From: a candidate division WOR-3 bacterium
Lineage (GTDB): Bacteria > Hydrothermota > Tepidihabitantia > Tepidihabitantales > Tepidihabitantaceae
DNA: 24,962 bases
Direction: 5' to 3'
Assembly: GCA_039801305.1 (NCBI GenBank)
Contig: JBDRUL010000001.1
Location: 1-24,962 of the forward strand
The first letter of the stretch is position 1, and each line of letters starts with the position of its first letter. The notes beneath the pieces were generated by a model that saw only the letters and a list, made by a program, of their open reading frames with translations, was not told the origin of the DNA and did not search any database. Position numbers and translations under genes: made by a program. This document shows positions 4,655 to 21,854 of the stretch, piece by piece.

Positions 4655-6087
4655 GTCTTCTGGCGCTTGCACTCCTCAGCGGACTGCTTCCTCCAAGACG
4701 GACAAGTGCCTGCACCATCGGAGCCTTTTCCCCGCTTTCGACGCAGAGTGGAGCAGCGATTCTCTGGAAGAACCGTGACGTAGCGAATCCGGATCAGGAA
4801 ATCAAGTTTTTTTCTGGCGGCAGGTTTCGTTTCATAGCCAATGTCTATGCCGGCGAGAGTACCGATGTCTGGGCTGGGATCAATGAAGCTGGTTTCGCAA
4901 TAATGAACTCGAACTCATATAACCTCGGGGGCAGAAAGGGGAAGACAGCTGACGACGGCAATGTAATGTATATGGCGCTTGGGCGGTGCGCCAGTATTAC
5001 CGATTTCTGCAAACTGATGGACTCGCTGAATGTCGTGGGCAGAAGTACACCAGCAAATTACGGCGTGTTCGACTCCACCGGCGCCACTTTAATCTTTGAG
5101 GCAGGCAACACTTTCTACAAGATTTGCGATGCCAGCCTAGACTCTTACAACTTCAGTCTGCGCGCCAACTACTCCTTTTCGGGCGATTCGATAAGACTGC
5201 GCGGCCGCAACCGCTGGCTGCGGGCAATGGAGCTAGCAATTCCTGCTCGGCAGCAGAACATCATTTCGGCCGATTGGATTCTGCAAGTACTCTGCCGGGA
5301 TCTGGGCCAGCTAGGATTCAATCCCTATCCTTTGCCTTTTACCGGCCGCTATGGCAATCTTCCCCGTGGGTATCTACCCACAGAGAGCACCATATCCCGA
5401 CAGACCACCCGATCGGTCGAGATAATGGTCGGCAGGCTGCCAGAGTGTCCAGTAGGTTCAGAGATGATGTGGGCAGTACTCGGTTCGCCCGATGTTGGCC
5501 TGCCGGTCCCGCTCTGGATAGCTGCCGGCAAGGTACCGCCTGCACTCGATGGCTACGTCCGCTCGCAGATCTGCGACGAAGCCGCTCGGGTACACTCATA
5601 CATCCACTCTGACCCGCGCTATCCGGCAGCAGTTAACACGGTTGCACTCTATACTGTCCAGACCTTTCTTGCACCGGTGGAGTCCTTGATATTTGCCATG
5701 GTCGAAAGTTCGGCTAACACATGGCATAAAAACACCCCCCTGCCCGAGCAGGCTTATGACCTGAGCCAAGCAGTTTGTGAGACAATCCTCGCTGCCTATC
5801 GACGGTTCCGGGAGAACTTGGAACCAGAGCGGGCAGTTTCACTCACTCTGGCACGACTGGTTACGCCGGCAAACTCGCGCGAGCTGCTGATTCAGCTGCC
5901 TACAGAACTAGTCAACCGTGAACTCTTTATCTACGACGCCATAGGGAGGCGCCGGTTAACTATAACTGCACCTACGGACAGGAACTCGTACAGCTGCGAC
6001 ATCTCTTCTCTTCCACGTGGCAGCTACTTCATTCTCACTGGCGGTGACAGACAGCAAAGGCTCTTCCGGCTCGACTACTTCCGCTGA
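4603..6087 (+). CDS. Secreted C45/AAT-like Ntn hydrolase (Cys nucleophile) with a T9SS-like C-terminal tail
   Basis: A hydrophobic leader is followed by SA|CTIG...ILWKNRD, then GINEAGFAIMNS and ANYGVFD, the C45 / acyl-CoA:6-APA acyltransferase pattern. The C-terminus reads IYDAIGRR...ISSLPRGSYFI. The start is uncertain (52 bp overlap with ispG). Confidence 0.8.
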   Translation: MFRSEAGARAHKAHPRLSLLALALLSGLLPPRRTSACTIGAFSPLSTQSGAAILWKNRDVANPDQEIKFFSGGRFRFIANVYAGESTDVWAGINEAGFAIMNSNSYNLGGRKGKTADDGNVMYMALGRCASITDFCKLMDSLNVVGRSTPANYGVFDSTGATLIFEAGNTFYKICDASLDSYNFSLRANYSFSGDSIRLRGRNRWLRAMELAIPARQQNIISADWILQVLCRDLGQLGFNPYPLPFTGRYGNLPRGYLPTESTISRQTTRSVEIMVGRLPECPVGSEMMWAVLGSPDVGLPVPLWIAAGKVPPALDGYVRSQICDEAARVHSYIHSDPRYPAAVNTVALYTVQTFLAPVESLIFAMVESSANTWHKNTPLPEQAYDLSQAVCETILAAYRRFRENLEPERAVSLTLARLVTPANSRELLIQLPTELVNRELFIYDAIGRRRLTITAPTDRNSYSCDISSLPRGSYFILTGGDRQQRLFRLDYFR

Positions 6088-6842
6088 ACCAGTGTTGCAC
6101 CCAGCGCCGCCGCATAGAGCGGCTGCTGACATACTGTAACCTCCACTCCTAGCGCCTTTGCCAGCGCCCTCACCATTCCCGGATTCTGTGCAACTCCGCC
6201 GGTGAATACGACGGGTGGTACCACCCTGATCCGTGCTGCCAGTGCGGCAATTCTTCGCGCGAGCGCCTCGTGCAAACCGGCAAGAATATCAGCAACCGGT
6301 GTGTCGGCGGCCGCGAGCGAAAGGATCTCTGACTCTGCCATCACGACACACAGACTCGATATCGGTGCCGGGCGAGAGGACTCAAGACTGATCTCGCCAA
6401 AACTCGCGAGCGGCAGGTTAAGGGAGCGCGACAGCACTGCCAGAAAGTTGCCGGTACCCGCAGCGCAGCGGTCGTTCATCGCAAACTCCAGTACCGCGCC
6501 ATTCTCAAGCGCAATCACCTTTGAATCCTGACCACCGATGTCTACGATCGTCCGGCAGGTAGGATGCCAAAAGAGAATACCAGCTGCCGCTGCGCTGATC
6601 TCGGTTACACTGCCCGTGGCAAAATCGACCGTATGCCGGGCATAACCGGTCGCTGTCACGGTGGCAACCTGCTCTCCAGACAGCCCAGCTTCTGCAAGAC
6701 AGCGATCAAACAACCGTGCTGCAGTCTCCCGCGGCTTCAGTCCCGTCGGCTCGGTCCGGGTGCATACGATCCTGCGAACAGCTGAATCAAACAGCAGCAC
6801 TTTGGTGTTCACCGAGCCGGCATCAACTCCCGCGTGAATCAT
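6075..6842 (-). CDS. ATP-dependent [4Fe-4S] activator, HgdC/BcrAD_BadFG (acyl-CoA dehydratase activase) family
   Basis: Motifs GVDAGSVNTK, TGYAR, DIGGQDSK, MNDRCAAGTG, ISSLCVVMAESE and GGVAQN. ATG 6842 has GGAGG 5 nt upstream and an ATGA overlap with the upstream stop. Confidence 0.93.
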   Translation of the reverse strand: MIHAGVDAGSVNTKVLLFDSAVRRIVCTRTEPTGLKPRETAARLFDRCLAEAGLSGEQVATVTATGYARHTVDFATGSVTEISAAAAGILFWHPTCRTIVDIGGQDSKVIALENGAVLEFAMNDRCAAGTGNFLAVLSRSLNLPLASFGEISLESSRPAPISSLCVVMAESEILSLAAADTPVADILAGLHEALARRIAALAARIRVVPPVVFTGGVAQNPGMVRALAKALGVEVTVCQQPLYAAALGATLVQRK

Positions 6843-7891
6843 CCGTTCCTCCAAGAATCAAAATCCGGATTTCTCCCCGCCGTCTTGGCTGATCGCACAA
6901 AAGCATCGATGTTCTCGGCTGGGGTAGCCAGCGGCACCTCGCAGCCGGTCGCCGCAACGAAACCCGCGGGACAATTTTTCCCCTGCCCGACCATCGCTGT
7001 CACCTCCCGCTCAATCTCATCAGCACTCTTAAGCAGCAGACTGGTCGTGTCGTAGTTACCAATTATTCGGCAGCGGTCGCCTGCCGCCTTGATGGCCTGA
7101 CTGATCTCAATTCTGTCCACGCTAAGAAGATCGGCTCCACTCAAAGGCATCAGCTCGATAATAAGACTTGTATCCCCACAGATGTGCAGTACCACATCGA
7201 GGTCAAACCGGTGCAGGTAGCGGATTACCTCCCTTTCGTAAGGCAAGGCAAACTCCTGATACTGCTCCGGGCTGATCACACTACCCGAAGCTAGCGGATC
7301 TACCAGTATCGGCAGCCCGCCTGCCCGAATAATTGCCTGCGCAAATCGCTTCACCGAACGAGTGGCAAAATCCAGCAGGTGATGGATACGGTCGGGCGAA
7401 ACCAACAGACCGGTCAAGAACGCCTCCTGATCCAGTAGCTGCTGCGCGGTCGTAAAAGGTGCGGGCACATAGGCGACTATCGGCACCCGGTCGGAACAGG
7501 CGTCATAGGCGTAGCTTATGCCCTCAAGATAGACCCGCAGCCGACCGTCCCGGTGCGGGTCTGCCACATAGTCACCCGGCTCAACCGGTTCCTGCCAGCG
7601 CGGTTCGGACAGATACGGCAGGTCGTCCTCCGGATAGAAGTAGCGCGAGCCAAGCGCCTCGGCAATCAGGCCCACCTCGGAAAAGAACGAGATGAAATCG
7701 ATCCCGTACCTCTCCTGCGCTGCTAGTTGTGCCCGCGCCATCGTGAAACCATTGGTGTAGTAATCGCGCAAAGAAAAGCCGGCTGCCACCGCCGCGTGAG
7801 CGGTCAGGAGCGGGAAAACCGGAACCCTATCCTGTGGCTCATCGATGACCAGCAGCCCGAACCGCTCCCGGGGAGTGAGCAGGTCTTTCAC
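6839..7891 (-). CDS. URO-D superfamily protein, MtaA/MtbA/CmuA-type methylcobamide methyltransferase (copy 1)
   Basis: Motifs DRVPVFP, AEALG, PFTTA, DPLASGSVISP, LHICGD (Zn HxC), IGNYD and ATGCEVP (third Zn Cys). It neighbours a corrinoid protein. GTGA overlap with the upstream gene. Confidence 0.88.
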   Translation of the reverse strand: MKDLLTPRERFGLLVIDEPQDRVPVFPLLTAHAAVAAGFSLRDYYTNGFTMARAQLAAQERYGIDFISFFSEVGLIAEALGSRYFYPEDDLPYLSEPRWQEPVEPGDYVADPHRDGRLRVYLEGISYAYDACSDRVPIVAYVPAPFTTAQQLLDQEAFLTGLLVSPDRIHHLLDFATRSVKRFAQAIIRAGGLPILVDPLASGSVISPEQYQEFALPYEREVIRYLHRFDLDVVLHICGDTSLIIELMPLSGADLLSVDRIEISQAIKAAGDRCRIIGNYDTTSLLLKSADEIEREVTAMVGQGKNCPAGFVAATGCEVPLATPAENIDAFVRSAKTAGRNPDFDSWRNG

Positions 7892-9327
7892 CTTTTATCC
7901 CTCAACAGTTCCAGAAACGCCTCGATGCGAGTAGCAAGCTGCCGATCTATCTCGCGTGCTGGTGGAGCGACATCAAACTCCAGTACCGGCAAACCGGTCT
8001 CCGCCTTGACACGGTCAGCAATCAGGCGTGCCTCCATTGCGCAGTGAGAGCCGCCAAGAATGCCGGATATGACCACTCCCTCAGCCCGGTTAGCGTATAG
8101 CTGCTGGATAATAAGTTCTGAACGCTGCCGGCTCGTGCCGATGAGCGAAGCCGCCATGAATGACTCGGCAATTGCTGTCAACGGCTCCTTCTCTTCGTCG
8201 ATCGGCTCCAGCGCCTGATTTATCACATACTCGGTGCCCACCAGCCTTGCCCCGCGGTCTTCCACAAATGTAAGCAACAACGGATCAGCCGGCGGTGTTA
8301 CCCAGACCAGTCGCAGGGCGTCTTCAAGGACCACGCGCCGGTTCGCCTGCCGGCGCTGGCGGGCAGTCTGCAGCAGGTGCTCGACGACCCGCTCCCATTC
8401 GTCCGGATCAGAGTAGCAGTGCAGATTACCGAACTCCACAACCATCATCTCCAGTGCCGGCAGCACCCCATCACCATAGGCAAGCCTGCGCAGTTCCATT
8501 ACCATCCGGCGCAGACGGTTTGTCCGCCTTATACTCCTGCCCAGCTCCTCGTCAGTAACCCGGCAACCGGTCAGATGCTCAAGACGCTCAACCACCCGTC
8601 TGAACTCGCTCACCAGCAACTCACGGGCTTGAGCCTCGTAGACCATGCCGGTAAAAGTCTGGCAGGTACCAAGACGCCGCAGGGGCAGCTCCACCCAGAG
8701 CAGTTCCCGGGCAATGTCAGCCACCAGTTGCTCCACCCCGGAATAGTCATCGCAGGAGGCACCGGTCGCTGCAATTACCATCTCCGGGACGGGAAAGTAG
8801 GCGCGTCGGGCAAAAGCTGCCAGTGCTGCGCGCGAAAAGCAGGTTGCCTCGCCGATCCCAAGCTCCGCCGCGGTCTCCAACAGCACCTTTGACTCCATTA
8901 CGAAGGGTGTCCACCAGGAACAGTCCGGATAGAAAGCAATGCAATCGGGAAACGAGTTCACAATAACCGGCACTGCACCCAAGTCGCCCATCGTGGCAAT
9001 CACGTGCCTGCCGATCTGACGCGCACGGAAAAGCCGCTCGGTCTCGTTCTGCACAAATCCCCAGAGCCGCAGCGCTGCCAGCGAATTGTCAAACTTGAGC
9101 CGACGCAAATGACGGCAGCCATAGATGGCAAAGGTCTGGGGAGGGAACAGATACTGCGACCAGTGATTGCTTGTGTCTGAATGTACCCGAGGAGACTCCG
9201 ACTCATCCGGTCTGCGGAAATATCGAAAACTCTGTATCAGCTCGTCTGGAACCGTCTCGAAAAGCTCTGCCCACTCGTCAAAGGTGATCCTTGCTGGCAA
9301 CGGGTCCTGCCAGAGATTCGGTTTCAC
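7888..9327 (-). CDS. 2-hydroxyacyl-CoA dehydratase family (HGD-D) subunit, divergent, with an N-terminal extension
   Basis: Motifs TCFSRAALAA, GASCDD, ELGRSIRRTNRLRR, RLVWVTPP, EGVVISGILGGSHC and QLATRIEAFLELL (the family C-terminal motif). Confidence 0.85.
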   Translation of the reverse strand: MKPNLWQDPLPARITFDEWAELFETVPDELIQSFRYFRRPDESESPRVHSDTSNHWSQYLFPPQTFAIYGCRHLRRLKFDNSLAALRLWGFVQNETERLFRARQIGRHVIATMGDLGAVPVIVNSFPDCIAFYPDCSWWTPFVMESKVLLETAAELGIGEATCFSRAALAAFARRAYFPVPEMVIAATGASCDDYSGVEQLVADIARELLWVELPLRRLGTCQTFTGMVYEAQARELLVSEFRRVVERLEHLTGCRVTDEELGRSIRRTNRLRRMVMELRRLAYGDGVLPALEMMVVEFGNLHCYSDPDEWERVVEHLLQTARQRRQANRRVVLEDALRLVWVTPPADPLLLTFVEDRGARLVGTEYVINQALEPIDEEKEPLTAIAESFMAASLIGTSRQRSELIIQQLYANRAEGVVISGILGGSHCAMEARLIADRVKAETGLPVLEFDVAPPAREIDRQLATRIEAFLELLRDKR

Positions 9328-10433
9328 AGAGCCTCCAGAAAAGCCTCTATTCGAGTTCTTACCTGTTCCTGATTCTCGCCAGCATAGTCAGAATCGACTG
9401 CCAGTACCGGAATCCTGAGCTTCTGGCGCAGCCGCCTGATCTCAAAACTCCAAGGGTCACAGTAGAGCAGGGTCTTGACAACGATCCCTTGCACCCCACG
9501 TTCAGCGATAAGCTGCCGGGCAAATTGATATAGCTCATCATTGGGTCGGCGACAGGCGCAGGCTGGACGGCTGTAATAAAACCAAGCAAGCGACTCCAAC
9601 GAATCTCCCCGGCCTACCTGAGTCTCTGCCGACCAGCGTGCACCGGTGCAGAGTACGTCCCCCACAACATCTGCACCTGCCTCGAGCACATTGAGAAACC
9701 AGCGGTCAGCCGGTAGAAAGATACTACCTGCAAGCAGCAGCCTGGGGCGTACTGTCATACCGGCAGAAGCCGTCGGCAACAAGGAGAGTAGTCTTTCCAG
9801 CAGCGCCGTTGCCTGATCTGGATCCAAAGTGACGGCAAGAGCGGTCAGGTCAAGAATATCTGACTGTGACACCGCTGGCGCCGGTAGGGCACGATTCGCA
9901 TCAAACTTGCGGAGCAATTCTCGCAGCCGGTCGTAGCTGGTAATGGCATCGGCAAGACGGGTGCTCTCTGCACGCACACCAGTGAAACAAGCAAGCCAGT
10001 CTGCAAGTAACCTGAGCTGACGCAGAAACTCCCCGACTCTTGGCGAAAGCGGTTCTGAAGTCCTCGGCAGGTAAAGAGTGAACGCAGGCACACCCGCAAA
10101 GGCACTGACCGCTTCGCCCAAGCGCCGCATCATATCGCAGGTACTCACGTTGACTACGCCATCGACGAACCGGTAAAGACTTTCGGTCTCAAAACCGCCC
10201 AGACACACCTTGCAAAACGAGCAGGCATCTGACCGCAGATACTTCTCACCTCTTTCTTCTGCTTCGCGACTCGCGCGCAGTAGCCGCACCGGAATCGCAC
10301 CACTAGCGTGGATGAGCTCTGCCGGCACGTACTGACACCAGTAGCCGATGACCTTCTTGCCAGCGGCTCTGGCTTCGGAAAGCTCCTGCAACCGCTGCCG
10401 CTGCAGTCTCTCAAACTCTGCTGTCCTAATCAT
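9324..10433 (-). CDS. 2-hydroxyacyl-CoA dehydratase / double-cubane-cluster-like protein
   Basis: Motifs VIGYWCQYVPAELIHASG, DACSFCK, STCDMMRR, DVLCTG, PACACRRP, LLYCDPW and EQVRTRIEAFLE. ATG 10433 gives an ATGA overlap with the upstream stop; the track start is GTG 10439. Confidence 0.9.
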   Translation of the reverse strand: MIRTAEFERLQRQRLQELSEARAAGKKVIGYWCQYVPAELIHASGAIPVRLLRASREAEERGEKYLRSDACSFCKVCLGGFETESLYRFVDGVVNVSTCDMMRRLGEAVSAFAGVPAFTLYLPRTSEPLSPRVGEFLRQLRLLADWLACFTGVRAESTRLADAITSYDRLRELLRKFDANRALPAPAVSQSDILDLTALAVTLDPDQATALLERLLSLLPTASAGMTVRPRLLLAGSIFLPADRWFLNVLEAGADVVGDVLCTGARWSAETQVGRGDSLESLAWFYYSRPACACRRPNDELYQFARQLIAERGVQGIVVKTLLYCDPWSFEIRRLRQKLRIPVLAVDSDYAGENQEQVRTRIEAFLEAL

Positions 10434-11593
10434 CCCCACGGCGCGAACTCCATTGCCGAGATGAACTCCTGTTCAAAATCCGGTCTGCCTGAGAGCAATA
10501 TCTCCCGGCAGCGGTCAGCAAGCGTCCGCGCCACTGTCAACCGGCGGCTGTTAGCTGCCACTATCACCGCGCCGCGCAGAGCAAGATTGCGATGTTGCCG
10601 CTTCCGAGCTGTTGTATTGGGCAGCAGACCGATTATCAATGCTGCGTGCAGATCTGCCGCTCCGCCGAACCGGCCGGTGAGAAATATCCGTTCGATGTCA
10701 GCCGGTCTTGCGCCGATGCACTTCAAGAGTATTCTGATGCCGGCAGCGATCGCCGCCTTTGCCAGCTGAATCTCACGGAGATCGCGCTGACTAATGTAGA
10801 GACCGGTCTTCCCGAGCAGCAATCGCTCACCGCTGCGCAGCCGGCCGCTACTCTCTATGAGTCCGAGCCTCAGACCAGCTGCAACTGCAGCCAGAACCCC
10901 GGAACCACATATCCCGGTCGCCGGCTTACCCTGGATCGTTTCCACCAGCATCCTTCCACTTCGGACTCTCACACTGCTAACCGCGCCTGGGCAGGCGATG
11001 CTGCCGCACTCGAGCGTGGCGCCCTCGAAAGCCGGCCCCGCGGCTGTTGAACAGACCAGGATCCTCTCGCGGTTGCCCAACGCGACCTCACCGTTGGTAC
11101 CGGCATCAACTAGCAGCGAGAGCTGGCGGCTTCTGTGCATTCCGGCTGCTAATATTGCCGCGCAGCAGTCACTCCCCACAAACCTGCCCAGCAGTGGCAG
11201 CATCCGGATTCTGAGACGGGCAGTACCAATCTGCCTCACAGCAGAAAGAATCTTCCCCGTTGCCAGCTGCGACCGGTACGGATGTACTCCGAGCCCGGTG
11301 GGATCCCTGCCGAGCAGAAAATGCGCCATCACCGTGTTTCCCACTGCGGTTATTGATGACCGTCTGTCGATCTGCCAATCTGTCCTGACCCGGTCAATAA
11401 GCTCCAGTAGGCCTGCCCGGGCAACATCTGGGGCACGTTCAATCCGGCTGATCACATCAGAACCGAAGCACATCTGGGGATTCAGAATATCTTTACGCCG
11501 CACCACCCGGCTGGTGCATCTTTCTACGGCAGCAAAAGAGACTGTTGTGGTTCCGACGTCAACCGCCAGAACGCAGCTACTCAACTCGACCAT
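10430..11593 (-). CDS. ASKHA-domain (DUF4445) reductive activator of corrinoid enzymes, RACo/RamA-like, without an Fe-S ferredoxin domain
   Basis: Motifs AVDVGTTTV, NPQMCFGSDVISRI, AVGNTVM, GRFVGSD, LLVDAGTNGEV, CSTAAGPAFEG, GICGSG, ISQRDLREIQLAKAAI and LTGRFG. Confidence 0.88.
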   Translation of the reverse strand: MVELSSCVLAVDVGTTTVSFAAVERCTSRVVRRKDILNPQMCFGSDVISRIERAPDVARAGLLELIDRVRTDWQIDRRSSITAVGNTVMAHFLLGRDPTGLGVHPYRSQLATGKILSAVRQIGTARLRIRMLPLLGRFVGSDCCAAILAAGMHRSRQLSLLVDAGTNGEVALGNRERILVCSTAAGPAFEGATLECGSIACPGAVSSVRVRSGRMLVETIQGKPATGICGSGVLAAVAAGLRLGLIESSGRLRSGERLLLGKTGLYISQRDLREIQLAKAAIAAGIRILLKCIGARPADIERIFLTGRFGGAADLHAALIIGLLPNTTARKRQHRNLALRGAVIVAANSRRLTVARTLADRCREILLSGRPDFEQEFISAMEFAPWG

Positions 11594-12561
11594 TCTCTGA
11601 CTGCCGCAACCATTGCCCGGATATTTTCAAACGGCGTCTGGACAGGTACATCACAACCGGATGAAAGAATCAGCCTCGACAATCTCAACTCAAGACTTCG
11701 GCGAACCTCCGCCTGTACGTCTTCAGCAGTACCATCAAGCAGCAGGGTAGTCGAGACGCCGCCCATGATGGTCGCTTTCCCGTCAAGTTCTGGGTAAACT
11801 GATACCAGCCTGACATCCTCAATGCTGACAAAGTCGGCTCCAGTCCCAAACAGCTGCCCCAGTATCCGTGAGGTATCGCCGCAGACATGCAGACCGACCG
11901 GACTGCCCATGGAATGGGCATCTTCAACCAACCGCTTGAGATACGGTTGAGCAAAGTTGGAAAACTGTTCCGGGCTGATCACGCTCCCCGATGCCACCGG
12001 GTCTCCAATGAAGGGCACAGCGCCTGACCTGACAATCGCCGAAAGATAGCGGCGCTGATTCTCGGTGGCAACAAGAAGGAAATCCCTAGCCCTGTCCGGT
12101 TGCCCAATTAAGTCGATAAGGAACCTCTCAGTCCCCGCTAGCATTGACGCAAGCGAGAATGGACCCTTCAGCGAACCGAGTATCGTAGCCCTGCCACCGG
12201 TAAGCTCTGACAGCCTCAGGATTGCCTCCAGCACAACCGGCATCCGGCCGTCACGATCCGGGTCAGCTGGCTCGAGCCGTGAGACCTGCGGCGGCATCAA
12301 TAGGAACGGGTCTTCGTCTTCGGGAATGATGACCTGCGCGCCCATCGCCTCGGCTTCGACGACCGTGTCGGTGAAGACGGTTATTCCGTCGTAGTCGTAG
12401 AACCGGTAGGCGGAGAAAAGAGCCCGCGCCAGCGCGGTCGGCTGGGTCACCACCTCTGCCATAGAATAGCCTCCCAGTCGCGCTGCGTGATTCGCAGCCA
12501 CCATCGGAATAATCAGTTGTCGGCCAGACGCGCCGTCTGAAAAAACGCCGCCGAAACTCAT
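11581..12561 (-). CDS. URO-D superfamily protein, MtaA-type methylcobamide methyltransferase (copy 2)
   Basis: Motifs VEAEAMGA, GPFSLA, DPVASGSVISP, LHVCGD, IMGGVST and SSGCDVP. ATGA overlap with the corrinoid gene. Confidence 0.88.
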   Translation of the reverse strand: MSFGGVFSDGASGRQLIIPMVAANHAARLGGYSMAEVVTQPTALARALFSAYRFYDYDGITVFTDTVVEAEAMGAQVIIPEDEDPFLLMPPQVSRLEPADPDRDGRMPVVLEAILRLSELTGGRATILGSLKGPFSLASMLAGTERFLIDLIGQPDRARDFLLVATENQRRYLSAIVRSGAVPFIGDPVASGSVISPEQFSNFAQPYLKRLVEDAHSMGSPVGLHVCGDTSRILGQLFGTGADFVSIEDVRLVSVYPELDGKATIMGGVSTTLLLDGTAEDVQAEVRRSLELRLSRLILSSGCDVPVQTPFENIRAMVAAVREWSS

Positions 12562-13208
12562 CTGCGGCTTAGTCGCTCAAACTCCAATACCGCGCCGTGT
12601 GCATCCGCAGCCCAGCCGTCTGCACCAATCCGCCGGCTGAATTCCAGCGATACGGGTGCGCCACCAACTATAACCTTAACACAATCACGCAGACCGGCGC
12701 TCTGGAGTGCTCTGATCACCGCTGCCATCTTGGGCATTGTAGTGGTCATCAGGGAAGACATTCCCAGTGCCAGTATTCTCTCCTCGCGAACTGCCCGCAG
12801 GAAACCCTCAACCGGCACATTCCGACCAAGATCGATCACCTCGAAACCGGCAGCCTCAAGCATCACTTTCACGATGTTCTTGCCAATATCGTGAATGTCG
12901 CCCTGAACAACCCCGAGCGCCACTCTAATGGCAGTCCCTGCTCTGTCAGAGCCTTCGCTCACCAGAACCGGCCTGAGAATCTCGAATCCGGCATACATTG
13001 CCTTTGACGCTAGCAGTACTTCCGGAACAAAGCACTCCCTAGCTGCAAACCTCTCGCCCATCCGGCGCATGCCGGCGGCAAGACCAAGTGTAATTGCCTT
13101 CTCGGCAGAAAGCCCTTTTTTCACAACCTGTTGTGCCAGAGCTGCTACCAGCTCCGGCCTCATAGCAACTACGGCGTCGGCAAGCTGGCTGTAAAGCGAT
13201 TCATCCAT
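12558..13208 (-). CDS. Corrinoid (cobalamin-binding) protein, MtaC/MtmC-like (B12-binding_2 cap + B12-binding domain)
   Basis: GLAAGMRRMGERF...FVPEVLLA cap, then GDIHDIGKNIV (DxHxxG), LGMSSLMTTT and VGGAPV. Confidence 0.96.
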   Translation of the reverse strand: MDESLYSQLADAVVAMRPELVAALAQQVVKKGLSAEKAITLGLAAGMRRMGERFAARECFVPEVLLASKAMYAGFEILRPVLVSEGSDRAGTAIRVALGVVQGDIHDIGKNIVKVMLEAAGFEVIDLGRNVPVEGFLRAVREERILALGMSSLMTTTMPKMAAVIRALQSAGLRDCVKVIVGGAPVSLEFSRRIGADGWAADAHGAVLEFERLSRR

Positions 13209-18989: not shown

Positions 18990-19757
18990 TCACATCCGGC
19001 TTCGCCACACCGCCCCATTGCCAGTCAGCGCCGCACCGAGCGCACCGACAAGTTGAGGCTCGCGGGGTATCAGCAGCGATACGCCCAGCCTGCGCTCCAC
19101 CAGCGCCCTGACACACGGGTTGAGTGCGACTCCGCCGCACATCACCACCGGTGGCTCAAGCCCCACCCGGCCAACCAGCGCCAGTAGCCGGCTCACAATT
19201 GCCTCGTGCAGCCCCAGTGCAATTGCACGCCTGCTGGTACCACGCGCGATCAGGGAAACCACCTCTGACTCGGCAAACACTGTGCACATCGAGCTGATCG
19301 CTGCCGACTCTTCTGCAAGAAGAGCCTCAGTACCGAACTCGTCCAGCGCATATCCGAGTGTGGTTGCCATCACTTCGAGGAATCGACCCGTTCCGGCTGC
19401 GCAGCGGTCGTTCATTTCGAACTCGCGCTGGCGGCCATTCTCCACGCGGATTGCCTTGGAATCCTGCCCCCCGATGTCGATCACTGTGCGGCAATCTGGA
19501 AACAGCGACTGTGCGCCAAGTGCGTGCGCCCTGATTTCGGTCACAGTGGAACAGCCAAGCCGTTCTGCTGCCAGATGCCGGCCATAGCCGGTTGCGACCA
19601 CCACATCAGGCAGATATTGATCGATCAGCTCTCGTACGCGTGCCCAGGGATCGGTACCGGTGTCGGTGATAACCCGGACACCGATCTGACCATCCTTGAG
19701 CAGAACCAGCTTGGTAGTCCGCGAACCGATATCAAGACCCGCGACAGTCGCTGCCAT
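18990..19757 (-). CDS. ATP-dependent [4Fe-4S] activator (DCCP-R / HgdC family)
   Basis: Motifs AGLDIGSRTTK, TGYGR, DIGGQDSK, MNDRCAAGTGRFL, ISSMCTVFAESEV and GGVALN. Directly downstream of the DCCP gene. Confidence 0.95.
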   Translation of the reverse strand: MAATVAGLDIGSRTTKLVLLKDGQIGVRVITDTGTDPWARVRELIDQYLPDVVVATGYGRHLAAERLGCSTVTEIRAHALGAQSLFPDCRTVIDIGGQDSKAIRVENGRQREFEMNDRCAAGTGRFLEVMATTLGYALDEFGTEALLAEESAAISSMCTVFAESEVVSLIARGTSRRAIALGLHEAIVSRLLALVGRVGLEPPVVMCGGVALNPCVRALVERRLGVSLLIPREPQLVGALGAALTGNGAVWRSRM

Positions 19758-19760
19758 CGC

Positions 19761-21032
19761 CTATTCGAGCTGCTCGATGAAAGCCTCGATGCGCGTGCGC
19801 AGCTGACCGGTATCCTCCTCGGAATAGTCAGTCACGATCTTCAGCGAAGGAATGCCAGCCTGTTTGAGCGCTGCCTCAACCCGCATGGCCTCGATGTTGT
19901 AGCCATGGCAGGTCTGAAGCACATACTGAATCGCGCCCTTCACGCCGAACTCTTGCGCCCGCTGCACCGCTGCGTCGATCCGTTCCTGATTTGGCGTAAA
20001 GCAGGCACAGTTGATCTTCAGATAGCGGTCAGCGATCGCAGTAATCTGCCCCTGCAGGTCCCGGGCGGTCTCGTCTATCAGATTCTCAAAGTAGCGCGAG
20101 CCGGTGCAGCTTTCATCCCAGACGATGACTCCGCCCGACTGCTCCACTAACGAATGGACTTTCCAGTTGCCCATCACTGTCGGGCAGCCGGCAATCATAA
20201 CCCGCTTCGCCCCGGGCTTCAGTGCCGAAACACCCTTGCCGATCCGCTCGGCAAGCTCAGCATTCAGGGCATTGACTGCTTGCGTGAATCTGACCGGCTC
20301 GTCAGCCAGCGCCACCTGCATCACCACCAGAGCGTCCAGCCCGGAGATCGGCGGCGGATCGACCTTACGGAGCTCAGCCAGCTTCTGCAGTGCCCGACGC
20401 TTCTCGTTCATTATCCGGATTGCTTCAGCGAGCCGGTTTGGCTCAACTTTCGTACCAGAAAGCTCCTCCAGTTTCAGCCGGAACTGATCCACTTCTGACC
20501 GCCACAACTCCGCATCCAGCCTGCCCTTCTTCTGCGGCAGCTCCATCACGTGGAAGTTCACCCTGCCCGAGAGAATCTCCCAAGTCTTCTTCTTTGCATC
20601 GCAGGTCGTCTCACCCACTGCCAGGCTCTTGACCGGCCCATACGGACAGGTCTTAGAAAACGCCAGACCCAGTGTGGACTTCACAAGGGGGCAGATGTCA
20701 CGTGGAAACATCTTCTCCGCATAGGGGATTGAAGCCTGTATTCCGCCACAAAGCGCGACCGGAACAGTGTTCGCTGCCATGGCAAGTTCTTCAGGAACGT
20801 AGATGCAGAAGGTACCGACAGTCTTCTTCCCGGCTTTCTTGCTCTCCACCAGCTCCGCCACCCGTCCACCGTGCGCCTCATGCAGCGCCTTGTCAAAGTA
20901 AGCCATCGCCTGCGGACGATTGGTCTGCGCACCAACAGTCATACGGAACAGCCGGTCGGTTGCCGCCTGCATCTCGTCATGCAGCGCCACATCCAAGCCC
21001 AGCTCCCTGAGCAGCTCTCTGTGTTCTGACAT
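19761..21032 (-). CDS. Double-cubane-cluster-containing anaerobic reductase (DCCP family, HGD-D fold)
   Basis: The N-terminus ELGLDVALHD...NRPQAMAYFD...HGGRVAEL is followed by VGTFCIYVPEEL, PRDICPLVKS, GETTCDAKKK, DESCTGSRYFEN, INCACFTPN, LQTCHGYNIE and DTGQLRTRIEAFIE. It is paired with an activator gene as in DCCP/DCCP-R. Confidence 0.9.
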   Translation of the reverse strand: MSEHRELLRELGLDVALHDEMQAATDRLFRMTVGAQTNRPQAMAYFDKALHEAHGGRVAELVESKKAGKKTVGTFCIYVPEELAMAANTVPVALCGGIQASIPYAEKMFPRDICPLVKSTLGLAFSKTCPYGPVKSLAVGETTCDAKKKTWEILSGRVNFHVMELPQKKGRLDAELWRSEVDQFRLKLEELSGTKVEPNRLAEAIRIMNEKRRALQKLAELRKVDPPPISGLDALVVMQVALADEPVRFTQAVNALNAELAERIGKGVSALKPGAKRVMIAGCPTVMGNWKVHSLVEQSGGVIVWDESCTGSRYFENLIDETARDLQGQITAIADRYLKINCACFTPNQERIDAAVQRAQEFGVKGAIQYVLQTCHGYNIEAMRVEAALKQAGIPSLKIVTDYSEEDTGQLRTRIEAFIEQLE

Positions 21033-21062
21033 CTTGCCCCCTCTCGGAGCAGCCCTTTGAAA

Positions 21063-21854
21063 CTACTTTTCTCCCAGATACCAGCCGCGACCAACCTTGT
21101 GAGCATGCGCGGCATCACGCCAGAGATTCACCAGCCCTTCGGCGAACATATACAGATCGTTTCCGAAGTTCTGCAGTATCGTCGGCTTCAAATCGACCTC
21201 GACCATTCTCTTGTACTGGTCAAAGCACTTGGCGAACTCGTCGGTCTGGTCTTTCACTTCAATCACCTTCAGCCCGTGCTTCTTCATCAGATCTGCCCAG
21301 CCCTGCAGTGTCTCCATGTACGGGAACGCCATCGTCTCATAGAGTTTGGCAAGCAGCGACTCCTCGACATCACCAGTGATCACCCAGTCGGTGAAGATGA
21401 TCTTGCCGCCAGGCTTGAGCACCCGTGCCGCCTCGGACATGAGCTGGTCTTTGTTGGTAACATAGCACCATGCTTCCTGCCCCCAGACCACATCAAAGGT
21501 ATCCTTCTTGAAGGGCATATCCATCGCGTTCCCTTCGACGAAGGTGATCAGATGATCAAGTCCGGCAGCCTTGGTTCTCTCGTTCGCCTTGGCAAGCATA
21601 GTCTTGGTGAAGTCAAGACCGGTCACCCGCACGCCATACTTCTTGGCGATGTGCCTTGCCGGTGCGCCCAGAGCTGAACAGACATCGAGCACATGCATCC
21701 CGGGCTTCAGGCCGACCGCGTTTGCCATCCGGTCGGTAATCTCGGCTCCGCCCGAATGAATCTGTTCGGACATCACCGCTTCCCACAAGAGTCCACCCGG
21801 ACCATCGTAGACGTCCTGTACGTCCTTGCCGGTATAGTCGTAGCGCTTTGGCAT
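21063..21854 (-). CDS. Class I SAM-dependent methyltransferase (sarcosine/dimethylglycine- or tocopherol-MT-like)
   Basis: Motifs EQIHSGG, LKPGMHVLDVCSALGAPAR, VTGLD, EGNAMDMPF, FDVVWGQEAWCYV and ARVLKPGG. SD AAGGGAGG. Confidence 0.9.
   Translation of the reverse strand: MPKRYDYTGKDVQDVYDGPGGLLWEAVMSEQIHSGGAEITDRMANAVGLKPGMHVLDVCSALGAPARHIAKKYGVRVTGLDFTKTMLAKANERTKAAGLDHLITFVEGNAMDMPFKKDTFDVVWGQEAWCYVTNKDQLMSEAARVLKPGGKIIFTDWVITGDVEESLLAKLYETMAFPYMETLQGWADLMKKHGLKVIEVKDQTDEFAKCFDQYKRMVEVDLKPTILQNFGNDLYMFAEGLVNLWRDAAHAHKVGRGWYLGEK

Follow-up and report, generated by a model that had tools for sequence, protein, structure and literature searches.

A six-Cys/three-Cys HGD-D protein pair, predicted to join a double cubane to a site-differentiated cluster, in a selenium-linked corrinoid operon of candidate division WOR-3

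Proteins of the DCCP family are widespread in anaerobes and work at potentials comparable to that of nitrogenase. To our knowledge, no physiological substrate is known for any of them. Six Cys of the DCCP 7-Cys motif serve as cluster ligands, whereas Cys94 does not (PMC7317905). In the BzdNO core of class I benzoyl-CoA (coenzyme A) reductase (BCR-I), BzdN carries an [8Fe-9S] cluster on six Cys and BzdO a [4Fe-4S]-OH2 cluster on Cys95, Cys128 and Cys380 (PMC11971306, PDB 8S02). Here we describe two adjacent HGD-D family genes, beta (9324-10433) and alpha (7888-9327), encoded in a 24,962-nucleotide stretch of contig JBDRUL010000001.1 from a candidate division WOR-3 bacterium (the whole stretch, hereafter the window). 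The DNA originates from a hot-spring metagenome. Both open reading frames are present on the minus strand and both match Pfam HGD-D (beta 1.1e-70, alpha 3.9e-39). The two proteins very probably form a heterodimer, in which a double-cubane subunit is joined to a subunit with a three-Cys, site-differentiated [4Fe-4S] cluster and which is fed by its own HgdC-type ATPase. The cluster arrangement itself is already known from BzdNO, the structure of which dates from 2025; what is new is its setting in a selenium-linked corrinoid operon. A literature search found no paper describing the alpha/beta pair.

Cysteine complements of the two subunits

The six Cys of beta (Cys35, Cys73, Cys101, Cys264, Cys294 and Cys327) align column-for-column with the ligand Cys of DCCP (6ENO) and BzdN (8S02_B) in HMMER alignments. 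Their codons lie at 10335-10337, 10221-10223, 10137-10139, 9648-9650, 9558-9560 and 9459-9461, respectively. Residues of beta (P0002) are counted from a GTG at 10439, and the likely start is the ATG at 10433, which overlaps the stop codon of the preceding gene (ATGA). In the ACAC pair, the conserved Cys is the first one (294). The spacing is almost the same as that of the [8Fe-9S] ligands of BzdN, Cys36, Cys73, Cys100, Cys263, Cys293 and Cys327 (PMC11971306). When beta was searched against PDB sequences with phmmer, the matches were DCCP 6ENO (2e-33), BzdN (5.6e-27), HadC (2.4e-21) and MbdN (1.7e-16), with no match to alpha-type chains. On the NCBIfam double_cubane model (NF040772), beta scores 180.2 bits, below the cut-off of 350 bits.

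The AlphaFold2 (AF2) model of beta (pLDDT 93.2) superposes on DCCP with a VIA Z of 47 and a root-mean-square deviation (rmsd) of 1.8 A over 366 residues, and on BzdN with a VIA Z of 44. The match begins at DCCP residue 37, and the first ~37 residues of DCCP are without counterpart in beta. Leu54 occupies the column of the non-ligand seventh Cys, which is likewise missing from class III of the DCCP review (PMC7317905). All six Cys sit, in the model, on strand-to-helix linkers, the elements named as cluster-binding in BzdNO (PMC11971306). At the third ligand position beta has a CxxCxxC run (ACSFCKVC), formed by Cys73 (10221-10223), Cys76 (10212-10214) and Cys79 (10203-10205); most closer WOR-3 betas retain Cys76, which BzdN has too (CPFC).

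In alpha, the Pfam HGD-D match is limited to residues 165-475. When the PDB was searched with the single sequence or with a profile of WOR-3 members only, the alignments covered just the C-terminal half, and a more diverse alpha profile was needed to reach BzdO (1.4e-11) and HadB (6e-7). In profile-profile comparison (hhalign), the alpha family aligns with the beta/DCCP family over 358 columns with a probability of 99.9. This alignment places Gly114 at C1 of the motif, Cys163 at C3, Cys192 at C4, Val368 (GTEYV) at C5, a gap or Ser394 (MAASL) at C6 and Gly426 at C7. Alpha keeps Cys163, Cys192 (CDD) and Cys429 (SHC), and the other three ligand positions are Gly, Val and Ser. BzdO Cys95 aligns with alpha Cys163, and BzdO Cys128 with alpha Cys192.

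The third ligand needs separate consideration. Its column (BzdO Cys380, DCCP C7, beta Cys327) holds Gly426 in alpha, and Cys429 follows three residues late. In the AF2 models of both subunits, the Cys directly precedes the post-strand helix, which starts at 328 in beta and at 430 in alpha. Because the helix N-cap position is the same, Cys429 is probably the ligand equivalent to C7, set behind a 3-residue GGS loop insertion. Like those of beta, all three alpha Cys lie on strand-to-helix linkers of the model (pLDDT 92.4), which gives VIA Z values of 30-36 to all BCR-I and 2-hydroxyacyl-CoA dehydratase (HAD) chains; the individual values are 36.4 for BzdN, 35.1 for HadC, 34.1 for DCCP, 31.7 for HadB and 29.9 for BzdO. 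Foldseek TM-scores gave no separation of alpha-type from beta-type relatives. On NF040772, alpha scores 83.5 bits against the cut-off of 350.

About 400 alpha relatives were detected at 90% clustering, and 313 representatives at 50% clustering. In a set of 38 sequences with identities as low as 24%, the few invariant residues include Cys163 and Cys192-Asp193-Asp194, and Ser427-His428-Cys429 is nearly invariant; Cys136 is retained in closer relatives only. The alpha motifs (C163, C192-D-D and S-H-C) are kept in 14/14 orthologous operons and the six beta Cys in 12/13, which argues that the pattern is not due to chance. Two alpha orthologs (L021:1595-2983 and L022:8001-9389) read GCSHC in place of GGSHC or GASHC, with Cys at the canonical column and at +3, and both come from operons without the RACo-type corrinoid activase. 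We also considered selenocysteine in alpha, since nine orthologs (G061, G135, G139, G143, G151, G157, G161, G163 and G181) carried a flag for one TGA, and rejected it: the TGA is the normal stop, which the alignments overrun by two codons. Among the five flagged orthologs inspected by tblastn, the stop is at query position 477 in four, and the fifth alignment has no stop. No selenocysteine or Se-binding motif was found in alpha.

Variation among beta-type proteins points to two separable cluster modules. All of 31 beta/DCCP-type sequences retain Cys73, Cys101 and Cys327. Joint loss of Cys35, Cys264 and Cys294 is seen in four of them (P0221, P0222, P0223 and P0227), and partial loss in a fifth. 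From this joint loss it follows that the two Cys triplets are likely to bind two separable cubanes, and the sequences show that betas of a predicted single-cubane type arise naturally. One of these is L009:8907-10004 (P0221), in an operon that is without RACo and has its ATPase upstream. Alpha lacks the same triplet as the single-cubane betas, and the triplet that it retains probably matches that of BzdO. Therefore, the predicted complement is an [8Fe-9S] cluster in beta plus a three-Cys [4Fe-4S] cluster with a free iron in alpha.

These results bear on a first-pass annotation of the window, which had aligned all six beta Cys with those of the DCCP at 19761-21032 and had seen in alpha the TCF, ASCDD and SHC Cys, with VGTEY and MAASL in place of CTG and CAC. 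Both assignments are borne out, the former by the HMMER alignments to 6ENO and the AF2 superposition, the latter by hhalign (Val368, gap/Ser394). In alignment with DCCP and BzdNO, each of the six beta Cys superposes on a ligand column and the third alpha Cys is three residues off. That annotation had also given alpha an extension of about 100 residues. It is not a single block: the alpha-beta alignment starts at alpha 91 and beta 12, leaving an N-terminal extension of ~80 residues (~68 relative to BzdO), and an internal insert of ~20 residues lies near 215-232.

Gene order and operon partners

The pair is embedded in a seven-gene operon that begins with a corrinoid protein (CP) and includes two MtaA-like methyltransferases (MlpA and MlpB). 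The features of the window are as follows, those of the operon first.

12558-13208, minus strand: CP, first gene of the operon (Pfam B12-binding and B12-binding_2)
11581-12561, minus strand: MlpA, MtaA-like Zn methyltransferase (Pfam URO-D 1.1e-65; His225-x-Cys227...Cys303)
10430-11593, minus strand: RACo-type corrinoid activase without Fe-S domain, an optional operon member (Pfam Raco_middle and RACo_C_ter)
9324-10433, minus strand: beta (P0002), HGD-D family, six-Cys double-cubane type (Pfam HGD-D 1.1e-70)
7888-9327, minus strand: alpha (P0001), diverged HGD-D family protein with three Cys (Pfam HGD-D 3.9e-39)
6839-7891, minus strand: MlpB, MtaA-like Zn methyltransferase (Pfam URO-D 9.8e-65; His236-x-Cys238...Cys317)
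6075-6842, minus strand: HgdC/DCCP-R-type ATPase ('archerase') activator (Pfam BcrAD_BadFG 2.2e-54; TIGR00241 231.7 bits)
21063-21854, minus strand: S-adenosylmethionine (SAM) methyltransferase, UbiE/Methyltransf_11-type, part of a separate unit (18990-21854)
19761-21032, minus strand: bona fide DCCP (6ENO E 7e-124; NF040772 457.2 bits, above the 350-bit cut-off)
18990-19757, minus strand: DCCP-R, partner of the bona fide DCCP

The junctions that flank the pair all show 4-nt overlaps: ATGA for RACo/beta, GTGA for beta/alpha and alpha/MlpB, and ATGA for MlpB/ATPase. Thus alpha starts with a GTG that overlaps the beta stop, MlpB overlaps alpha in the same way, and the ATG of the ATPase (6842) overlaps the MlpB stop. 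Directly upstream of the operon, on the same strand, are a selD-like and a TusA/YedF-like gene. The unit of SAM methyltransferase, DCCP and DCCP-R is further upstream and separate from the corrinoid operon. The source study has a single RNA run, and the sampled words were all absent from it.

Of 201 genomes sampled from the phylum, 40 have alpha. For comparison of loci, we combined 14 fetched loci with 36 obtained by a pattern scan of species-representative genomes, about 50 in all; record titles among the 36 include KSB1, LCP-89, Calditrichaeota and Ca. Tariuqbacter. Beta lies directly upstream of alpha in all ~50 loci, across several phyla. Every corrinoid-type locus has the order (selD or SAM methyltransferase)-CP-MlpA-(RACo)-beta-alpha-MlpB-ATPase, conserved across metagenome-assembled genomes of WOR-3, KSB1, LCP-89 and Calditrichota and often placed beside selD or a SAM methyltransferase gene; selD is adjacent in the window and in many other loci. 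MlpB follows alpha directly in all loci with corrinoid genes, and the ATPase is the final gene in nearly all loci. Where the contig allows, CP, beta, alpha, MlpB and the ATPase form a constant core. RACo is absent from eight loci and MlpA from three, and the minimal operon (L021) is CP-beta-alpha-MlpB-activator.

Identity to the window proteins across loci is highest for MlpB (42-75%), alpha (38-69%), CP (38-67%) and the ATPase (34-64%), and lower for MlpA (31-58%), RACo (29-54%) and beta (26-52%). Among orthologs, alpha is 38-80% identical and beta 26-69%. Alpha is far better conserved than beta, and therefore behaves like a catalytic subunit, and beta like a relay. This fits a division of labour in which beta would be a relay subunit that is little constrained beyond its ligands.

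The ATPase exceeds the TIGR00241 cut-off (231.7 versus 125.4 bits) and carries Cys130 in MNDRCAAGTG and Cys169 in SSLCVVMAESE, two motifs that it has in common with the DCCP-R of the window. Both Mlps have a His-x-Cys...Cys Zn site of the kind taken as S/Se-type (PMC10418091). The window RACo starts directly at the ASKHA motif. Of ten RACo N-termini read, the window's included, seven have an N-terminal CGGxGxCGxC ferredoxin-like domain (L007, L016-L019, L023 and L024), and the window, L015 and L020 do not. The idea that alpha-beta stands in for the missing Fe-S domain of RACo was rejected as a general rule, since a complete RACo and alpha-beta occur together in most relatives.

A second architecture occurs in L010, L012 and L062, where SAM methyltransferase-(DCCP)-beta-alpha-ATPase is found without corrinoid genes. 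The SAM methyltransferase, DCCP and DCCP-R families adjoin alpha/beta or are fused with them in L009, L010, L012, L022 and L062. The corrinoid-free loci indicate that alpha-beta, DCCP and the SAM methyltransferase form a recurring partnership independent of the corrinoid module. In L010:8001-10604 (867 residues) and L012:959-3544 (861 residues), an alpha-type protein is naturally fused to a DCCP-like domain with six Cys. In both, a separate beta gene lies upstream (with the SAM methyltransferase as well in L010) and one BcrAD ATPase gene downstream, and no corrinoid or Mlp genes were found nearby. The arrangement suggests a single working assembly of alpha-beta and DCCP.

In many operons, the gene directly upstream of CP encodes the UbiE/Methyltransf_11-type SAM methyltransferase (40-87% identical among loci), which in the corrinoid-free loci lies upstream of beta. 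It accompanies alpha-beta no less faithfully than selD does (window, L009, L015, L020, L022, L023, L031, L032, L038, L040-L043, L046-L048, L050, L053 and L057-L060). In genome G000, contig C36:571-4821 (L004, L006) carries a third BcrAD ATPase (168 bits) beside two weak HGD-D-like frames (22-27 bits), and contig C94:1585-4830 (L005) carries a further such frame. These may be parts of a further, more divergent archerase-dependent system of this genome.

A proposed reductase and alternative readings

We favour, with moderate confidence, the view that the pair is the core of a BzdNO-like, ATP-dependent, low-potential iron-sulfur reductase, acting on a non-CoA substrate related to methyl-sulfur or methyl-selenium compounds. 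ATP hydrolysis by the HgdC-type ATPase (6075-6842) would push an electron into beta, where the [8Fe-9S] double cubane held by the six Cys would act as both electron relay and store. The electron would then move on to an alpha [4Fe-4S] cluster bound by Cys163, Cys192 and Cys429 only. One iron of this cluster would be free and would face a pocket in the place of the lost second cubane, lined by the conserved residues Asp193, Asp194, Glu366, Tyr367, Ser427 and His428. Alpha would be the catalytic subunit. Cluster types and the direction of electron flow are predicted by homology; heterodimer formation is suggested by homology, gene coupling and invariable adjacency.

The nature of the substrate is suggested by context. 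Among the ~50 loci, none contains a CoA ligase, CoA transferase or other CoA-activating gene, and none of the operons has later dehydratase or benzoyl-CoA pathway genes. These absences argue against a CoA-ester substrate. Selenium enters through several links. Type 1 mlp systems are described as corrinoid S/Se-methyltransferase systems tied to selenium use, with DCCP/DCCPR noted among the accessory genes (Kountz and Balskus 2023, PMC10418091). For DCCPs, 955 of 970 strong hits are in SelD-containing genomes, and a Se-bridged cofactor has been raised as an idea (Haft preprint, 10.1101/2022.07.06.499078). Lin et al. 2015 linked an HGD subunit plus activase to YedE, YedF and SelD by STRING. Given the S/Se-type Zn sites of the Mlps, the adjacent selD and the selenium links of mlp and DCCP genes, the substrate would be a small compound of the methyl-sulfur/selenium chemistry of the surrounding corrinoid/Mlp operon, either a methylated S/Se compound or its demethylated product.

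Several points weigh against this reading. Since alpha is orthologous to neither BzdO nor HadB, function is not transferable from BzdO. Cys429 is three residues off the canonical column in gap-free alignments, and His428 or another residue could serve as ligand. For the six beta Cys, two [4Fe-4S] clusters without a bridge are also conceivable. Cluster, complex and activity are predictions for members of both families, and the selenium tie comes from the gene neighbourhood only.

The alternative that survives best, though we regard it as doubtful, is that alpha-beta and the ATPase serve as a reductase of the corrinoid protein, converting Co(II) or Co(III) to Co(I), for repair or at each turnover, and thereby replace or feed the RACo-type activase. 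The window RACo is indeed without an Fe-S domain, and eight of the ~50 operons have CP, beta, alpha, MlpB and the activator but no RACo, as in the minimal L021 operon. However, most relatives keep, beside alpha-beta, a complete RACo with its own CGGxGxCGxC domain, and the corrinoid-free loci (L010, L012, L062) have alpha-beta together with a SAM methyltransferase and DCCP but no corrinoid or Mlp gene nearby. In addition, the highly conserved polar residues of the alpha pocket are more in keeping with a small substrate than with a corrinoid bound to a protein.

A more specific reading, which we hold to be unlikely, is that the pair acts as an ATP-driven reductase of C-Se (or C-S) bonds, a selenium-abstracting enzyme. 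Here the free iron of alpha would bind the selenium of a methylated or organic Se compound demethylated by the Mlp/corrinoid system, the bond would be cleaved with electrons stored on the beta double cubane, and SelD would receive the cluster-bound selenide; the beta cubanes might themselves be Se-bridged, as Haft proposed for DCCPs. Were this true, it would be the first physiological role for DCCP-family proteins.

Quite unlikely, in our estimation, is that alpha is an S/Se-abstracting enzyme of the TudS/HadC type, non-redox or reductive, which would proceed through a [4Fe-4S]-SeH/SH intermediate and send selenide towards SelD, with beta and the ATPase acting only in priming. A predicted three-Cys cluster with one open iron, the selD and TusA/YedF-like genes directly upstream and the near confinement of DCCP-family proteins to SelD genomes (955/970) are all consistent with it, and [4Fe-5S] states are known in HadC and TudS (PMC11971306). 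Yet the argument is purely contextual: alpha yielded no selenocysteine or Se-binding motif, the apparent in-frame TGA codons of relatives are ordinary stops, and loci without a nearby selD have a SAM methyltransferase instead.

Improbable to a greater degree is the absence of any pairing, with beta a short homodimeric DCCP and alpha a separate homodimer, the two being co-transcribed through a shared pathway. DCCP is itself a homodimer (PMC7317905), it is the closest structural relative of beta (Z 47), and the alpha of L010 and L012 is fused to a DCCP-like domain rather than to beta. Against this stand the invariable beta-alpha adjacency with overlapping stop and start codons at every locus, the presence of a beta gene still upstream of the alpha::DCCP fusions, and the fact that all characterised members with unequal paralogous neighbours (HadBC, BzdNO and MbdNO) are heterodimers. 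An ordinary 2-hydroxyacyl-CoA dehydratase or benzoyl-CoA-type reductase that is in the operon by chance, as public annotations would have it (the Atlas cluster is auto-named BzdO family), is very improbable given the equivalog scores far below cut-off (HadC 87/700, BzdN 83.5/453.8, and no BzdO or HadB match for alpha), the six rather than three Cys of beta, the lack of CoA transferase, CoA ligase or further pathway genes in the conserved operon, and the single ATPase gene in place of a BzdPQ pair.

The fixed place of the pair between a corrinoid protein and a thiol/selenol-type methyltransferase, beside selD, narrows the substrate search to small methyl-S/Se compounds. The operon is a defined seven-gene set for heterologous reconstitution, and the natural beta variants without Cys35, Cys264 and Cys294 are ready-made single-cubane controls.

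Comparison with known systems

The dehydratases HadBC and HgdAB, with their activators HadI and HgdC (PDB 3O3M), resemble what is predicted for the present system in being heterodimers of HGD-D paralogs served by a homodimeric ATPase activator, with a catalytic alpha that has a three-Cys [4Fe-4S] cluster and is longer than beta. HadC, however, has three Cys plus a sulfhydryl ligand where beta has six Cys, and these enzymes act on a CoA ester with a CoA transferase in the operon, a gene that is not found here. On the HadC model, beta scores 87 bits against a cut-off of 700 and alpha 23.7 bits; alpha gave no match to the HadB model.

The window operon has what defines a type 1 mlp gene cluster by Pfam and NCBIfam matches: a CP, two His-Cys-Cys MtaA-like Mlps and an activase. 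It is like the clusters of Kountz and Balskus 2023 (PMC10418091) in its corrinoid protein, several His-Cys-Cys MtaA-like methyltransferases, activase (Ram/RACE in that work), selD neighbourhood and DCCP-type accessory genes. In that paper, as read, DCCP/DCCPR are accessory genes and an unequal alpha/beta pair is not mentioned; the clusters are mostly from Firmicutes and vary in gene order. The present operon has a fixed order, with beta-alpha-MlpB an invariable block in candidate phyla of the FCB group.

With DCCP and DCCP-R of C. hydrogenoformans (PDB 6ENO, 7YYL; PMC7317905, PMC9351452), the likeness lies in the fold of beta, the six ligand Cys, a dedicated HgdC-type ATPase and a genomic link to SelD; a true DCCP/DCCP-R pair is encoded 9 kb away in the window. 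DCCP differs in being a homodimer with two double cubanes, in which the cluster is the active site. Beta has neither the seventh Cys nor the N-terminal channel-closing segment, and its partner is a three-Cys paralog.

BzdNO (Aromatoleum sp. CIB, PDB 8S02) shares with alpha-beta two paralogous HGD-D subunits, one of which has six Cys for an [8Fe-9S] cluster at nearly the same residue positions. ATP-driven electron input and, in the other subunit, a three-Cys [4Fe-4S] cluster with a free iron would also be shared, with two of the alpha Cys aligned to BzdO ligands and Cys429 as the probable third. Yet identity is about 25% for beta and BzdN and about 15% for alpha and BzdO. On the BzdN model (TIGR03190), beta scores 83.5 bits against a cut-off of 453.8, and on the BzdO model (TIGR03191) alpha gave no match at E <= 0.001. 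In structure, alpha is no more distant from BzdN, HadC and DCCP than from BzdO, and its third Cys follows a 3-residue loop insertion within a conserved G-x-S-H-C motif. Each operon has one BcrAD (HgdC-like) ATPase gene, in contrast to the two-gene BzdPQ, and the setting is a corrinoid/Mlp/selD operon without benzoyl-CoA pathway genes. For each of the ten remotest alpha homologs, the DCCP model gives the best score. From the sub-cut-off equivalog scores, the structural Z values and these remote homologs, it follows that the pair is not orthologous to BzdNO. Both subunits are nearer to DCCP than to BzdO or HadB. Taken together, the hidden Markov model and structural scores suggest that alpha descends from a DCCP-like ancestor and lost one sub-cubane separately.

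This comparison also settles how far the first-pass annotation holds at the level of the system. Its proposal of a heterodimer, in which a double cubane is combined with an altered, site-differentiated cluster or pocket, is supported by homology and conservation, with the pairing suggested by adjacency, and the dedicated activator at 6075-6842 is likewise supported, with a TIGR00241 score above the cut-off. The pair is distinct from HgdAB/HadBC and from the DCCP homodimer, as claimed, since the Cys counts differ; it does not stand apart from everything known, since BzdNO has the same cluster complement. Beyond that precedent, the present work contributes a residue-level map of both subunits, evidence for two cluster modules from joint Cys loss, the contrast in conservation between alpha and beta, and a corrinoid-free architecture of SAM methyltransferase, DCCP and alpha-beta. 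Reduction of one double cubane is the evolutionary step proposed for benzoyl-CoA reductase, and alpha-beta would represent a second, probably independently derived lineage in which one subunit has only a three-Cys catalytic cluster left of its double cubane and the partner still has a complete one.

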